Source: Escherichia coli (GTDB lineage Bacteria > Pseudomonadota > Gammaproteobacteria > Enterobacterales > Enterobacteriaceae). Taken from it: a stretch of DNA of 64,000 nt. A model generated the notes under the pieces. That model worked only from the letters and a program-made list of their open reading frames with translations, was not told the DNA's origin and searched no databases. Made by a program: the position numbers and the translations under genes. Shown one piece after another: positions 22,833 to 29,631 of this stretch. The stretch lies in assembly GCF_044324785.1 (NCBI RefSeq), contig NZ_CP172127.1. One strand, given 5' to 3'. The first letter of the stretch is position 1. Every line of letters starts with the position of its first letter.

Positions 22833-23624
22833 ATGATGAAAAATACAGGCTATATCTTAGCTCTTTGTCTGACAGCATCGGGGCATGTCCTGGCCCATGA
22901 TGTCTGGATTACCGGCAAACAGGCAGAGAACAACGTTATCGCAGAGATTGGTTATGGTCATAATTTCCCCTCAAAGGGCACGATTCCTGACAGAAGGGAT
23001 TTCTTTGAAACTCCCCGGCTTTATAACGGGAAAGAGACAATAACGCTGAAGCCAACATCCACGGATTATGTCTATAAAATTGAGTCTGCAGGCAACGGTA
23101 ATAGCTACGTTCTGTCAACGAAAATGAAACCGGGATACTGGTCGAGAACCTCGTCAGGATGGAAGCCTGTCAGCCGGGAGGGCAGAAATGATGTGGCATA
23201 CTGTGAGTTTGTGACTAAATATGCAAAATCTTTTATTCCTGGTGAACAGCAGATGCCAGCACAACTCTATCAGTATCCAATAGGGGATGAGCTTGAAATC
23301 ATTCCGTTATCCGATATCAGTCGTTTCGGTGAAGATGTGAAGCTGAAAGTTCTGTATAAAACTTCCCCGCTTGCCGGAGCCACTCTGGAGCTTGACTCTG
23401 TCAGTTATCTGAAATCATCCCGCCATACTCATGCGGCAGAGCATAAACATTCGGCTCATAAAGCAGAACTTACCTTTGTAAGTAATGAGGACGGTATCAT
23501 CACTGTACCCTCCCTTCATGTCGGGCAATGGCTAGCTAAAGTCAAAAATAAGAAAGTATTTCAGGACAAAAACCTGTGTGATGAAACTGTCGATGTGGCA
23601 ACCTTAAGCTTCTCCCGAAATTAA
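22833..23624 (+). CDS. Periplasmic DUF4198-like protein co-transcribed with the TonB-dependent receptor
   Basis: 263 aa; signal peptide then HDVWI start of the mature protein, as in DUF4198 proteins; 18 bp after the receptor gene. Confidence 0.5.
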   Translation: MMKNTGYILALCLTASGHVLAHDVWITGKQAENNVIAEIGYGHNFPSKGTIPDRRDFFETPRLYNGKETITLKPTSTDYVYKIESAGNGNSYVLSTKMKPGYWSRTSSGWKPVSREGRNDVAYCEFVTKYAKSFIPGEQQMPAQLYQYPIGDELEIIPLSDISRFGEDVKLKVLYKTSPLAGATLELDSVSYLKSSRHTHAAEHKHSAHKAELTFVSNEDGIITVPSLHVGQWLAKVKNKKVFQDKNLCDETVDVATLSFSRN

Positions 23625-24038
23625 TAATACTATTCCTGCCCTGTAATTTACGGGCAGGGTATATCAACCGGAAATAGCCTACTGACATCCATGTATAAAG
23701 CCACATAATTATTTTGTTGATGTATCTTACCTAATACGTAAGCGTAAAGCCAATGCCGTCTGTAACTCCTGATCCTTGCAGACTAAATGTAAGCGCTCCT
23801 TCTGTGCCGTCTTGTGGTGGTTGTCCTGTCTGGCAACAATCGCGTCCATCTATTGATGGACACGAATGATGAATTCTCAGACAACAAAAGATATCACCGG
23901 CTTTCGCTCTTATTTTCCAGATGTATTGCGACTAATATTCGAAGAGCAATTATCTGTTCGGGCTATCGCACTGGAGCAGTTAGGCCTCAGTCATTCCACC
24001 GTTCATAATATCTTTCAACGGTTTAATGCCTCTGGCAT

Positions 24039-24111
24039 GTAAGCGTAAACCGACCGTTGTATTGACGCTTATTTATAGGGGAGAACTACGTTCCATGGCA
24101 GGAGTTCGTCA
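24039..24111 (-). mobile_element. IS66-family terminal fragment (duplicate of the 24994-25066 tip)
   Basis: GTAAGCGTAAACCGACCG... plus about 55 bp identical or near-identical to the end of the IS66 copy at 24994. Confidence 0.55.
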
Positions 24112-24182
24112 GTAAGCGTACAGCCTGAACCGTCTGGTCAGAATCTGACGCATTAGACAAAGTGGTGTCCACAAAATAAGTA

Positions 24183-24584
24183 GTGGGAACCAAAGTGTCA
24201 GATATGCAGAAAAATGTGACTCCCGGCAGGCGAAAAGGCTGCCCTAATTATCCTCCCGAATTTAAACAGCTGCTCGTTGCTGCCTCCTGTGAACCCGGGA
24301 TATCCATCTCAAAACTTGCTCTTGAAAATGGCATTAACGCCAATCTGTTGTTCAAATGGCGACAACAATGGCGCGAGGGAAAGCTGCTATTACCTTCTTC
24401 AGAGAGCCCCCAGCTACTTCCTGTGACTCTCGATGCAGCTGCCGAACAGCCAGAATCGCTCGCAGAGGACCCGGAAACCCTCAGTATCAGCTGTGAGGTA
24501 ACGTTCCGGCACGGGACGCTCCGCTTCAATGGCAATGTCAGCGAAAAGCTCCTGACTCTGCTGATACAGGAACTGAAACGATGA
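24183..24584 (+). CDS. tnpA: IS66-family accessory protein TnpA (orfA)
   Basis: 133 aa; ...ISKLALENGINANLLFKWRQQW motif; preceded by IS66 IR GTAAGCGTACAGCC at 24112. Confidence 0.8.
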   Translation: MGTKVSDMQKNVTPGRRKGCPNYPPEFKQLLVAASCEPGISISKLALENGINANLLFKWRQQWREGKLLLPSSESPQLLPVTLDAAAEQPESLAEDPETLSISCEVTFRHGTLRFNGNVSEKLLTLLIQELKR

Positions 24585-24928
24585 TCCCGTTACCTTCCGG
24601 GACCAAAATTTGGCTGGTTGCCGGTATCACCGATATGAGAAATGGCTTCAACGGCCTGGCTGCGAAAGTACAGACGGCGCTGAAAGACGATCCCATATCC
24701 GGCCATGTTTTCATTTTCCGGGGCCGCAGCGGCAGTCAGGTTAAACTGCTGTGGTCCACCGGTGACGGGCTGTGCCTCCTGACCAAGCGGCTGGAGCGTG
24801 GGCGCTTCGCCTGGCCGTCAGCCCGTGATGGCAAAGTGTTCCTTACGCAGGCGCAGCTGGCGATGCTGCTGGAAGGTATCGACTGGCGACAGCCTAAGCG
24901 GCTGCTGACCTCCCTGACCATGCTGTAA
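24581..24928 (+). CDS. tnpB: IS66-family TnpB (orfB)
   Basis: 115 aa; MIPLPSGTKIWLVAGITDMRNGFNGLAAKV typical of IS66 orfB; the transposase orfC is missing. Confidence 0.8.
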   Translation: MIPLPSGTKIWLVAGITDMRNGFNGLAAKVQTALKDDPISGHVFIFRGRSGSQVKLLWSTGDGLCLLTKRLERGRFAWPSARDGKVFLTQAQLAMLLEGIDWRQPKRLLTSLTML

Positions 24929-25023
24929 ATCTCTTTATCCTGGTTGTCACAGAATAAGCCCGGTAAAATACGGGCTTATGAACGACATCTCTTGTAAGCG
25001 TCAACGGAGCACCGTATTGACGC

Positions 25024-26616
25024 TTATTTATTGGTGAGTACTACGTTCCATGGCAGGAGTTCGTCAACACAGTTGGAGGGCCATTCCGGCAGTACGCTCA
25101 GAATATGGCGCAGATACGCTTCCGGATCGATACCGTTCAGACGGCAGGTGCCGATCAGCCCGTACAGCAGTGCTCCACGCTCGCCGCCGTGATCGCTACC
25201 GAAGAACACGTAATTTTTCTTTCCGAGACAGACTGCACGAAGCGCTCTTTCCGCTGTGTTATTGTCCGCTTCTGCCAAACCATCATCACTGTAATAACAG
25301 AGGGCGTCCCACTGATTCAGTACATAGCTGAACGCTTCGCCCAGTCTGGATTTTTTCGACAGCGTGCCATTCTTCTCCACCATCCATTCATGCAGCGACG
25401 TCAGTAACGCTTTGCTTCGCTGCTGCCTGGCTGCAAGACGCTCTGACTCTGGTAATCCCCGTATTTCATCCTCGATGGCGTACAGTTCACTGATTCACTT
25501 CAGGGCTTCTTCTGCCGTCGCACTTTTGCTGCTGATGTATACATCGTGGATTTTTCGCCGGGCATGGGCCCAGCACGCAACTTCTGTCAGTGCACCACCT
25601 TCACGTTCTGCACTGAACAACCTGTCGTAACCTGTGAACGCATCCGCCTGCAGGATACCCCGGAAGGGGCGAAGGTGTTGCTCCGGGTGTTTCCCCTGCC
25701 GGTTCGGCGAGTACGCGAACCAGACCGCTGGAGGAGATGACGAACCCACATTGCGATCATCCCGGACATACGTCCAGATACGCCCTGTTTTCGCCTTTTT
25801 CTGACCCGGTGCCAGTACCTTTACCGGTGTGTCATCAGTGTGAACCTTGCGGGTGTTCATTACATAACGGTACAGGGCATCATTCACCGGTGTCATTAAC
25901 TGGCAGCACGCGTCAACCCAGTTGGAGAGTAAGGCCCGGCTCAGTTCGACACCCTGGCGGGCAAAGATTTCACTCTGACGATACAGTGGCAGATGTTCGC
26001 AGTATTTTCCCGTTAACACGCGGGCAAGTAATCCGGGGCCCGCGATACCACGCTCTATCGGGCGGGACGGCGCCGGTGCTTCAACAATACAGTCACATTT
26101 TGTACAGGCTTTTTTTACCCGTTCTGTGCGGATCACTTTCAGGGCACTGCTCACCAGTTCCAGCTGTTCAGCGCTGACTTCCCCCAGATAATCCAGCTCA
26201 CCGCCACACTCCGGGCAACAGCTTTCTTCTGGCTCCAGGCGGTGTATTTCACGGGGAAGGTGTGCCGGTAACGGACGACGATGGCGCGACTGTCGCAACT
26301 GGCGGGGAACCTGAGGATCGTCTTCCCGCCCACTGTAACGATCGCTGTCCTGTTCACGTTGTTTCAGCAGAGCCTCAGCCAGTTCAACTTCACGACGCAG
26401 TTTTTCAGAACGGGTACCGAACAGCATCCGGTGCAGTTTTTCTATCTGAGCCCGCAGATGTTCTATTTCCCGTTCATCTTCTTCGATCTTTTCTTCGGCA
26501 CGTGCCAGTGCAGAGCGCAGGAAGGCCTCCGTCTCTTCAACCAGACTCAGTTGCTGGTCTTTCTGACGGAGCTGGCTTTCCAGTTCTGCAATGCGAATGA
26601 GGTATTTCTGACTCAT
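25024..26616 (-). pseudogene. tnpC: IS66-family transposase orfC, split into two ORFs
   Basis: 373-aa N-terminal and 119-aa C-terminal ORFs in different frames, both with IS66 transposase sequence (coiled-coil N-terminus, CxxC zinc motifs, DDE region). Confidence 0.7.
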
Positions 26617-26646
26617 GGCCGTTTTTATAATGCGGCCAGGCGTTTT

Positions 26647-26997
26647 TTACAACATTGTCAGTGCGTTAAGGCGGAATGTTTTTGGCTGACGCCAGTCCAG
26701 CTTATCGAGGAGCATTGCCAGTTGCGAGCGGGTAATGGATACCTTGCCGTCACGTACCGCAGGCCAGATAAACTGGCCTTCCTCCAGGCGTTTGGTGAAC
26801 AGGCACAGACCATCAGCATCAGCCCAAAGAATTTTGACGGTGTCACCCCGTCGGCCACGGAAGATAAACAGGTGACCGGAGAAGGGATTATCATTCAGCA
26901 CATGTTGTACCTGTTCTCCCAGTCCGTTGAAGGATTTACGCATATCGGTAACGCCGGCAACGAGCCAGATACGGGTACCTGATGGGAGTGAGATCAT
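26647..26997 (-). CDS. tnpB: IS66-family TnpB (orfB)
   Basis: 115 aa; paralog of 24581-24928 (MISLPSGTRIWLVAGVTDMRKSFNGL). Confidence 0.8.
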   Translation of the reverse strand: MISLPSGTRIWLVAGVTDMRKSFNGLGEQVQHVLNDNPFSGHLFIFRGRRGDTVKILWADADGLCLFTKRLEEGQFIWPAVRDGKVSITRSQLAMLLDKLDWRQPKTFRLNALTML

Positions 26998-27419
26998 CTT
27001 CCCCTCCCGGTCAGTTCACGGATCAACACTGTGAGCAGCTCTGGCGATGGATTTTCCAGCGTCATGTTACCGTGACGGAATTCCACCTTGCAGGAACTGG
27101 CACTGACTCTGGTCTGAGTGGAAGTGGATAAAGACGGCGCAATGGCCGCCACAGGTTCTTTCTGCTCATCCGGCGTTATTTCTACAGGTAATAATTCAAC
27201 GCCAGTGTCAGAAGAGGTCGTTACCGGAAGACGCCGCGAAACACGCCCTTCGTTCTGCCAGAGCCTGAGCCATTTGAAAATAACATTATCATTGACGCCA
27301 TTTTCACGTGCAATCTGTGCAACACAAGCTCCAGGTTGTGATGCCAGTTCCACCATACGAAGTTTGAATTCATTCGAATAGTTTTTACGAGGTTCTTTTC
27401 GCCAGTCCTGTAATTCCAT
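26994..27419 (-). CDS. tnpA: IS66-family TnpA (orfA)
   Basis: 141 aa; ...FKLRMVELASQPGACVAQIARENGVNDNVIFKWLRLWQNEGR. Confidence 0.8.
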   Translation of the reverse strand: MELQDWRKEPRKNYSNEFKLRMVELASQPGACVAQIARENGVNDNVIFKWLRLWQNEGRVSRRLPVTTSSDTGVELLPVEITPDEQKEPVAAIAPSLSTSTQTRVSASSCKVEFRHGNMTLENPSPELLTVLIRELTGRGR

Positions 27420-27504
27420 ACTTAGATGTCCGTCTATATCAGATGGGCGTCTAAGTTACCAATTCTCGTCTGATGGCTACATACGGCGGTCAGTTTACGC
27501 TTAC

Positions 27505-28740
27505 CTTTATCCCGACAGACGACGTATATTTACCAGTAAGGCCAACCCGGTTGCGCCCTTTGAACCAGAAGTCAAACGTCAGGCTGTCATGGCACTCTGT
27601 ACACGACAAGTATCAGCCAGTGAAATCGCCAGGCGTATTGGTGTCAGTCGTGCGGTATTGTATAAATGGAAAGATAAAATTATCGGCAACAGTGCTTACC
27701 AGACTATGCGTAAACATAACGAACCTTCCCTGGAGGCAGAACGCGATGCGTTGCGGGAGGAAGTCGCCCGACTGAATCAGGAAATACGCCGCCGGCAGAT
27801 GGAGCTGGATATTCTGAAAAAGGCGGAGGAAATCATAAAAAAAGACCCGGGCATCAGTATCAGTCACCTGAACAACAGAGAGAAAACGAAGATCGCTGAT
27901 GCCCTGAGACAAACATATCCCCTGACAGAATTACTGCATGTTCTGGGCCTTGCCCGTAGCAGTTATTTTTATCACCGGGCTGCACTGAAAGCCGGTGATA
28001 AATACGCCACGATACGTACGATGCTGACAGATATATTTAACAGTAATTACCAGTGTTATGGCTATCGTCGCCTGCATGCGATGCTCAGGCATGAGGGGGG
28101 GCGGCTATCAGAAAAGGTTGTACGCAGACTTATGGTGGAAGAACAGCTTGTCGTCAGCCGTAACCGTCGTCGCCGCTACAGCTCATATTGCGGAGAAATC
28201 GGACCGGCTCCGGATAACCTTATCGCCAGAGATTTTAAGGCGGAGCAACCTAATCAGAAATGGCTGACAGATATCACGGAGTTCCACCTCCCTGCAGGTA
28301 AAGTCTGGCTATCATCGGTGGTGGACTGCTTCGATGGAAAAGTTGTGAGCTGGTCTCTCAGTACACGCCCCGATGCTGAACTGGTCAACACTATGCTGGA
28401 TAGCGCTGTCGAAACGTTAAATGCTGGCGAACGACCGGTGATACACAGTGACAGAGGTGGGCATTATCGCTGGTCAGGCTGGCTGGAAAGAGTGAATGCA
28501 GAAGGTCTTATTCGCTCAATGTCCCGCAAAGGATGTTCACCTGATAATGCGGCATGCGAAGGCTTTTTCGGCAGACTGAAAACGGAAATGTATCATGGGC
28601 GTAAATGGTCGGGCATCACGCCAGAAAAGTTCATGCAGCAAGTGGATACTTACATCAGATGGTATAACGAGCGGCGTATAAAATTATCGCCGGGTGCAGT
28701 CAGCCCCAAAATGTACCGCCAACAATGCGGGCTGGAATGA
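27505..28740 (+). mobile_element. IS3-family transposase gene, 5'-truncated by the IS66 insertion
   Basis: Reading frame opens right at the IS66 end without the usual N-terminal HTH start; contains a DDE integrase core (WLTDITEF, HSDRGGHYRW, CSPDNAACEGFFGRLKTE); longest Met-initiated ORF 27589-28740. Confidence 0.7.
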
Positions 28741-29047
28741 TAAAGCAGTCCAGGAAATCGTCCGCATCCCCAGAACGGTCAAACATCGTGGCGTTGACAA
28801 CGGGTTCCTGAGTCCGGTGAAGCGCCGGTTACTGGAAAATGTTGTGTACGTCATAACAGAAACGGAGAGAAAAACGGCGATGCAAATCAGGCGGAGAAGG
28901 GTGTATCAGCGGTTACTGAAGGTTGACCCGCTGAAGTGCATCCTGTGCGGAGGTCAGATGCGGTTTACGGGGCTGAAGCGGGGCTACCGTCTGGCAGAGC
29001 TGGTCATGATGCATGAGCCACTGGCACGACAGCGGGTATACAGCTGA
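28694..29047 (+). other. Possible transposase C-terminal fragment (CxxC zinc motif), family uncertain
   Basis: 117-aa ORF ...CILCGGQMRF... lying among IS debris; no confident family assignment. Confidence 0.25.
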
Positions 29048-29631
29048 GAGCCGCAGAGGGGAAGTTGCGTCCATTTTTTGAGGAATGGAGCAAAAAATCA
29101 TCACAGATATAAAAAATCAATCAATGAAAGCCATTTAATTGCCGGTGCATTGTGGATGCAGTCCTCATGGTACGTAACCAGAGTTGAATAAACATCCATT
29201 TTTTTGTGTTTTTTTAACCTCCCCGGGTTTTTAATTCCTGTCGATTAAAAGTGTTAGATTATTTGGTTAAGAGTTCTCTCGTCCTATTTATTCAGGCGTT
29301 ATCACGGATATGCAGATCGCTAAGTCAGTTGTAAGAAAACCAGACAGTGCACATCATTATACCTAGGTCTTCTCTGGAAAAATACTTAGGAATAATTTAT
29401 GTAAAACAGGTTGTCGTCTTCATGATTTAAACGCAGTACATATATATACTCTATAATAAATACAGGGAGTATCACGAGACGTCTGGATAAGAGGAATAAC
29501 CAGAATAAATTGGTAAGGAATAAAGACACTTATTTCTATTGAGAAAAAACATTCATCCTGATGTGATTAGTATCAATGAAATAATGTGCTTGTATGGTTG
29601 ATAAAAAATGCATCACTAAAGAAAAAACAGT

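Follow-up and report, generated by a model that had tools for sequence, protein, structure and literature searches.

Can a stack of nested and truncated insertion sequences (ISs) still move, and if so, in what units? This question is raised by an IS66-family block at positions 23738-27504 of a 64,000-nt stretch of Escherichia coli DNA (contig NZ_CP172127.1; the whole stretch is hereafter called the window). In this block, where no non-transposition gene is found, IS66-type termini face left at five positions (23738, 23789, 24039, 24112 and 24994) and right at a single one (27504). All five occurrences of the motif GTAAGCGT in the window, against 1.4 expected by chance, lie within the block. 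A preliminary description of this DNA had read the block as nested and rearranged IS66 copies that record serial insertion and recombination. Serial insertion is borne out for the IS66-family elements; overlooked was the mobility of parts of the nest as transposable units. We consider it likely that the nested IS66 stack supplies alternative left ends, which are moved together with a single right end by IS66-type transposition.

Two such units, here named U1 and U2, were identified at other sites. U1 (24112-27504; 3393 bp) has the left inverted repeat (IRL) of ISEc8 as its left end and the IRL of an ISEc23 variant as its right end. U2 (23738-27504; 3767 bp) has the same right end and begins at a short left-end tip, W. 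The sites of U1 were traced by a sequence look-up with the TnpB of the ISEc8 remnant. In CP067307.1, U1 is located in the 5′ end of the Ag43 gene with a perfect 8-bp duplication (TGTTCAGA), and in CDDKXM010000002.1 in a phosphotransferase system (PTS) IIA region, again with a perfect 8-bp duplication (GATATTGC); both sites are uninterrupted in other genomes. The left junction of the stack (23738-24111) is also present on two IncF plasmids. On p14EC020b, U2 corresponds exactly to 23738-27504 and is found downstream of the IncFII repA gene, with one copy of CTTAATTA next to each of its ends. On pMS1679-1, its position is between traV and traC, where it disrupts traR, and the octamer repeated at its two ends is TGTTTATC. 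The two empty plasmid sites, rebuilt with one octamer, were found with 100% identity in thousands of IncF plasmids. U1 and U2 are thus bounded by IS66-type termini and 8-bp duplications at four sites, and all four empty sites were confirmed. Because the units carry these duplications, the nested left ends appear to pair with one right end, giving chimeric units. At least three left ends have served together with the right end at 27504, namely those at 24994 (2511 bp, the ISEc23 variant alone), 24112 (3393 bp) and 23738 (3767 bp). The U1 and U2 copies have identical internal junctions and share 99.7-99.9% sequence identity; ISEc23 would therefore have entered ISEc8 once, and the longer units stem from that nest. 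The tnpA, tnpB and tnpC genes of the ISEc23 variant are intact in every mobile copy examined.

The right-hand part of both units is a complete, inverted ISEc23 variant of 2511 bp (24994-27504, minus strand), with its right inverted repeat (IRR) at 24994 and its IRL at 27504. It is the minus-oriented IS66 that had been placed after the second of two repeated tips, and that second tip is the right tip of this element. On the minus strand it encodes tnpA (26994-27419), tnpB (26647-26997) and tnpC (25024-26616). The Pfam domains of the products are those of the IS66 gene set: HTH_Tnp_1 in TnpA, TnpB_IS66 in TnpB, and LZ_Tnp_IS66, zf-IS66, DDE_Tnp_IS66 and DDE_Tnp_IS66_C in TnpC. The intact tnpC allele scored 452 bits against the NCBIfam model transpos_IS66 (cut-off, 180). 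The terminal repeats, GTAAGCGTCAACGG... at 24994 and GTAAGCGTAAACTG... (reverse strand) at 27504, are imperfect and start with GTAAGCG. A stand-alone copy in CP095820.1, flanked by the 8-bp duplication AGAATAAG, fixes the 2511-bp ends. Compared with copies named as ISEc23-family by the Prokaryotic Genome Annotation Pipeline (PGAP), the variant is 97.6% identical over 2512 nt, with one 21-bp in-frame gap near the start of tnpC; the divergence from ISEc23 is concentrated in two patches, which gives the element a mosaic look. By the convention of ISfinder, nucleotide identity of about 95% or more denotes the same IS, and the variant falls within ISEc23 at 97.6% over its full length. It is 92% identical to an ISEc43-family copy.

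The window copy of tnpC carries an in-frame TGA at 25495-25497 (minus strand), where every other copy examined has CGA, and this codon cuts TnpC at residue 373 of 530. The lesion had been taken for a frameshift of orfC. This can be ruled out, as the two open reading frames (ORFs) at 25024-25383 and 25495-26616 share one frame with a single TGA between them, and the full 1593-nt frame translates with one stop. The underlying change is G>A at 25497 relative to strain CLSC36, which has CGA and an annotated intact TnpC of 530 residues. All other copies examined, including plasmid copies and the canonical ISEc23, have G at this position; the nonsense mutation was seen only in the window sequence. 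Because of this private codon, the window copy probably depends for its movement on transposase made by another copy. At positions 25855, 26836 and 27030, the window has the bases of canonical ISEc23 (G, G and T), whereas A, A and C are found in all remaining U1 and U2 copies, and strain 64.1 is intermediate. This allele pattern suggests gene conversion between ISEc23-type copies.

The left-hand part of U1 is a fragment of ISEc8 (24112-24993, plus strand) corresponding to positions 1-882 of the element, with 99% identity to the reference copy of O157:H7 strain 1130, which is 2442 bp long (locus L002, 2502-4943). The fragment contains the IRL, tnpA (24204-24584), tnpB (24581-24928) and a spacer hairpin. 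Only the first 16 nt of tnpC are left (the start codon at 24978 and 13 further bases), in agreement with the plus-oriented orfA-orfB segment without orfC that had been noted between the two tips. The full 2442 bp with both ends and tnpC is therefore not present here; other strains have full-length ISEc8 at precisely this place. The two tnpA/tnpB pairs of the block, whose alignment had been proposed as a check, share only 38% (TnpA) and 66% (TnpB) amino acid identity, and tnpB about 67% identity at the DNA level, indicating that they are not copies of one element. The perfect hairpin (ATAAGCCCG GTAAAATA CGGGCTTAT) at 24953-24978 in the tnpB-tnpC spacer of ISEc8 ends at the tnpC start codon, and it is flanked by two independent IS66-family insertions (24933-24940 and 24993/24994).

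Three more fragments, W, X and Y, precede ISEc8. Two of them, W (23738-23788) and X (23789-24037), are IS66 left-end fragments that had gone unnoticed. W is a 51-bp IRL tip (plus strand) of an ISEc43-like IS66-family element, and agrees at 49 of 52 positions with the IRL that the ISEc43-family element has in E. coli 042. It forms the outer left end of the 3767-bp U2, and the plasmid copies of U2 begin exactly at 23738. X (249 bp, plus strand) was assigned to an IS66-family member by DNA and protein similarity and consists of an IRL (GTAAGCGC...) and the 5′ part of tnpA, covering the first 57 codons of a gene whose parent-type product has about 225 residues. It is 91% identical in nucleotides and 84% in amino acids to a TnpA/TnpB-bearing IS66 member on pE1246_1, and shares 42% amino acid identity with TnpA of ISCro1. 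The 58-aa helix-turn-helix (HTH) ORF carried by X (23866-24042) ends inside Y, has weak HTH hits in Pfam and is labelled as a truncated HTH protein by PGAP. Y (24038-24111, minus strand; 73/74 nt) is an orphan right-end tip of an ISEc23-group element with a terminal repeat and the last codons of a tnpC. The 73-bp tip that had been reported twice (24039-24111 and 24994-25066) was recovered by a repeat finder as a direct repeat of 74 nt (24038-24111 and 24993-25066). The repeat is thus present, but its two parts match at only 65 of 74 positions (88%); they are related rather than exact duplicates, and are therefore derived from different elements. Nor is the first tip the end of the plus-oriented element, as had been proposed: a role as the IRL of ISEc8 is ruled out by the homology to ISEc8, which begins at 24112, and the tip belongs to another ISEc23-group element. 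Its best matches were right ends of other IS66 elements in E. coli genomes, at 89% only, and among E. coli genomes and PLSDB plasmids no parent closer than 89-91% was found for Y or X. What had been described as IS66 copies are therefore at least five distinct members: an ISEc43-like element, an unnamed one, the ISEc23-group tip, ISEc8 and the ISEc23 variant.

The window copy itself lacks a target duplication at every level. An 8-bp target duplication is reported to be characteristic of IS66 elements, and flanks that do not match are generally read as evidence that copies have recombined (PMC6778807). On the left of the ISEc23 variant is CATCTCTT and on its right CTTTATCC; the whole stack (U2) has CCTAATAC on its left and U1 has GTTCGTCA, each with the same CTTTATCC on its right; the ISEc8 part has no right end of its own. 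CTTTATCC at 27505-27512 is native sequence of an IS3-family element (27505-28772, plus strand; positions 338-1605 of about 1605 bp by mapping of the reference ends), and in strain E89 this IS3 runs through the junction site without a break. Because of these two observations, the right junction can be ascribed to the IS66 end joining the inside of IS3, and the IS3-family transposase is truncated at its 5′ side at 27505, as had been described. The absence of a duplication points to a later deletion or recombination that replaced the original right flank; since the same element has a duplication elsewhere, we infer that the lack of one here reflects rearrangement of the window copy. Two routes may be envisaged. 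The end of the element may have attacked IS3 in an adjacent deletion, or the nest may have recombined with a second copy inserted in IS3 at CTTTATCC. In an IMG/VR contig, a left end of ISEc8 directly follows IS3 positions 1-345, the last bases of which are CTTTATCC (locus L054, 5292-5299). This complementary junction fits two-copy recombination, but might also result from independent use of a favoured site.

The following history probably accounts for these structures. In CP182365.1 and other complete genomes, the same island contains the tips W, X and Y followed by full-length ISEc8 and no ISEc23 variant, and this represents an older state. The ISEc23 variant would then have been inserted in inverted orientation into ISEc8 at position 875-882, leaving its IRL facing away from all older left ends. 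Subsequently, IS66-type transposition moved the variant alone, U1 or U2, each event producing an 8-bp duplication. The transposase would be the variant's own TnpA, TnpB and TnpC, which may bind any correctly facing end through a shared GTAAGCG...CCGT motif. GTAAGCG at positions 1-7 (GTAACCG at one end of ISCro1) and CCGT at 19-22 are common to the ends of W, ISEc8, the ISEc23 variant and ISCro1. The Y terminus keeps GTAAGCG and has TTGT at 19-22, and the X terminus has GTAAGCG with CCGT one base earlier; between W and the IRL of the ISEc23 variant, 21 of 27 positions agree. The window copy is a donor-type chromosomal copy whose right flank would later have been replaced. The full-ISEc8 state was first met in metagenome contig OMEX01000080.1 (locus L019) and was confirmed by the complete genomes, though with a right flank other than that of L019. 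After the right end of ISEc8, this contig continues with CAATAAAT... (L019, 3784-3885), compared with AACTCAGC... in the full-ISEc8 genomes. Its tail is either one more arrangement of the locus or the result of chimeric assembly of metagenome reads.

Several points weigh against movement of the stack from alternative left ends. The duplication-flanked insertions of U1 and U2 examined were four only, and scans of viral contigs and species-representative genomes for the U1 junction gave no match. No unit starting at the X or Y terminus was seen, without a specific search for such units. The predicted intermediate, in which the ISEc23 variant lies inside full ISEc8 and is followed by a second CATCTCTT and the remainder of ISEc8, was absent from all the fetched loci. 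In the older W-X-Y-ISEc8 stack, ISEc8 is also without a duplication. Intermediates of the IS3 junction were not found by synthetic-junction searches of 5,426 complete E. coli genomes; the constructs tested were U2 joined to the native cobW-side sequence and the left part of IS3 joined to the left end of U2, and neither gave a full-length match. Finally, a helper enzyme from ISEc8 or ISEc43 copies elsewhere is a possible alternative mover of U1 and U2.

Three other explanations were weighed against transposition from alternative left ends. The block might be a static remnant, in which elements were nested and trimmed by deletions and nothing moves any more. The window copy looks like one: it has no target duplication at any level, four of its five IS66 members are truncated, its tnpC has a stop codon, and an ancestral nest occupies the same locus. 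Identical blocks of 3393 and 3767 bp at four unrelated sites, with ends exactly at IS66 termini and perfect 8-bp repeats, are not expected of dead sequence, however; their targets exist uninterrupted in other genomes and plasmids, and tnpC is intact in all the other copies examined. We regard a static block as unlikely, and for the block as a kind this explanation is already contradicted. The units might instead have reached their sites by homologous recombination with resident IS66 copies or inside a larger transposon. Recombination between IS66 copies is indeed evident at the locus from swapped left and right flanks (L023, L028, L030 and L031), and the alleles at 25855, 26836 and 27030 point to gene conversion. 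Yet recombination makes no 8-bp target duplication. The duplications differ among the four sites, IS66 elements are lacking at these positions in thousands of relatives with the empty site, and the shared DNA stops exactly at IS66 termini. Transfer by these means seems quite improbable.

The third explanation is mis-joining of repeated IS66 reads. IS66 elements are multi-copy repeats, the metagenome contig L019 continues differently past ISEc8, and the differences from strain CLSC36 (locus L001) are unevenly placed. The window and CLSC36 are collinear over 14.5-34.5 kb with five substitutions; four of these fall within 23500-29300, and all four lie inside the ISEc23 variant. However, the 5.8-kb segment 23500-29300 is present over its full length at 99.9% identity in 108 complete E. 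coli genomes, obtained by many laboratories from hosts and sources including poultry, humans, pets and water, and metagenome contigs show the same context. An exact-pattern scan for the X/Y junction matched five metagenome contigs, all in this chromosomal context, and had no match in species-representative genomes. Moreover, secondary insertions in other strains carry clean duplications inside the block. Because the layout is identical in 108 complete genomes, an assembly artefact, which had been named as what would overturn the duplication, is so improbable that we treat it as excluded.

The nest is part of a genomic island of E. coli and starts shortly after two genes, one encoding a TonB receptor and the other a DUF4198 protein. 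In CLSC36, the island lies beside tRNA-Sec, and the region is found between the TonB-dependent receptor/DUF4198 pair and an AIDA-type autotransporter; no tRNA gene was found within the 64-kb window. Native DNA ends at 23737, where the match to strain CFT073 stops. In CFT073 (locus L007, 7099-8448), a gene for a cobW-family GTPase comes next after those for the TonB-dependent haem-type receptor and DUF4198. The cobW-family gene is absent in the window lineage, in which the IS66 nest begins 113 bp past DUF4198 (23625-23737).

The locus has continued to attract insertions, as the suggestion of a hot spot for cargo turnover had anticipated: other strains with the block show at least 16 further independent IS insertions in the 23.2-29.3 kb region with clean duplications, and the cargo differs between strains, CFT073 having the cobW-family gene at the position where the block starts. 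ISCro1 (2699 bp) was inserted at nine independent sites (23207, 23423, 23887, 23969, 24021, 24153, 24209, 24341 and 24397), in both orientations, within 1.2 kb (23207-24404) around the cluster of IS66 left ends. These sites were mapped in loci L008, L009, L012-L014, L023, L025, L138 and L139, and no ISCro1 insertion was seen in the remaining approximately 5 kb of the IS block. The clustering could reflect targeting of related termini or a sampling effect. The other insertions were IS100 (24100), ISEc8 in the spacer of ISEc8 in strain 64.1 (24933), an IS110-family element (25212), IS3-family elements (25335 and 27929), ISKpn26 (27421) and ISEc22 (near 29265). The octamer CTTTATCC was met three times as a junction or target, namely at the IS3 joint of the window, at the ISEc8 insertion of strain 64.1 (24933-24940) and at the ISEc8-IS3 joint of the IMG/VR contig; TGTTTATC, TTTTTATC and ACTTTATC were likewise used. 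A strong target consensus can be ruled out, as 84 flanks of ISEc8 and ISEc23 have no more in common than a core rich in A/T and outer positions with G/C. Octamers containing TTTATC occurred three times among these flanks against 0.28 expected (p ~0.003 in a post hoc test).

On the right of the nest, the IS3-family fragment lacks the left 337 bp of the element, has its right terminal repeat and no left end, and is 97.4% identical to the copy in strain MS20645. Its remnant ORF of 383 residues (27589-28740) contains the Pfam domains rve, rve_2 and HTH_21 and scored 379 bits against the NCBIfam model transpos_IS3 (cut-off, 160). The reference copy in MS20645 is itself inserted in tnpA of ISEc8 (locus L004, 1100-1163), a second IS-in-IS nesting of the same two families. 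The IS3 element interrupts a putative IS91-family 3′ fragment (28773 to approximately 29248, plus strand). This fragment was assigned by PGAP and DNA similarity only, with 85-91% matches to annotated IS91-family elements, of which those at 85% end near 29248; its C-terminal remnant ORF of 81 residues has no NCBIfam match. The segment 27505-33654, which comprises the IS3 and IS91 fragments, an AIDA-type autotransporter of 1165 residues and IS1, also occurs as a module on several plasmids, and in E89 (locus L017) it lies between two IS1 copies inside a major facilitator superfamily (MFS) transporter gene. It follows that this module has moved independently of the IS66 nest. Farther right of the island is an apparent integrative conjugative element (34321-60140) encoding a tyrosine integrase, ParA, a DnaB-type helicase, DUF2786/DUF7168, topoisomerase III, a YhgA-like transposase and a TraD/TraG coupling protein. 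The identity to the 5,426 complete E. coli genomes ends at about 34,525, within the integrase gene.

If the stack does move from alternative ends, IS debris that is usually dismissed as dead here supplies working ends, and a general route would exist for recycling such debris into mobile units, possibly with capture of adjacent DNA. The chimeric units on conjugative IncF plasmids, one of them in traR, and in the 5′ end of the Ag43 adhesin gene would be a live source of mutation, and they would provide homology for rearrangement of islands and plasmids in avian and extraintestinal E. coli. They would also offer natural evidence for interchangeable ends in the IS66 family, the mechanism of which is still poorly known. 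Gene-by-gene labels such as “IS66 accessory protein” mask the real mobile unit. As a tentative extension, somewhat short of even odds in our judgement, IS66-family transposases may in general accept the ends of other members, stacks may thereby give rise to longer chimeric ISs, and ISCro1 may be drawn to clusters of termini. The scope is narrow, as neither a new protein family nor a new class of mechanism is involved.

Every component of the block belongs to a known family, and the region itself is ordinary mobile-element debris. A literature search found no description of IS66 chimeras with alternative ends; to our knowledge, tips of different IS66 members serving as alternative ends, with the resulting units on conjugative plasmids, are apparently undescribed. 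The unmatched 8-bp flanks of the window copy resemble those of a single IS66-family element on an Agrobacterium At plasmid (PMC6778807), which are taken as a trace of recombination or deletion; in that case the recombining partners were two identical IS66 copies, whereas here the partner copy is inferred. ISEc8 (2442 bp), known from E. coli O157:H7 and many plasmids, shares its IRL, tnpA, tnpB and spacer with 24112-24993, but only its left 36% is present here, and U1 combines its IRL with an end from another IS. ISEc23 and ISEc43 (about 2.53 kb) have the same three genes and the same ends as the variant, which differs from them by the 21-bp in-frame gap, two divergent segments and, in the window only, the nonsense codon of tnpC. 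A functional parallel is provided by the compound transposons of IS10/Tn10 and IS50/Tn5 and their alternative-end (“inside-out”) transposition, in which the transposase pairs any correctly oriented ends, so that one locus gives rise to several transposable units of different length. Unlike these systems and the classical compound transposon, the units described here contain one complete IS and no cargo gene, and their other ends are short tips of non-identical IS66 members, fragments of 51 to 882 bp.

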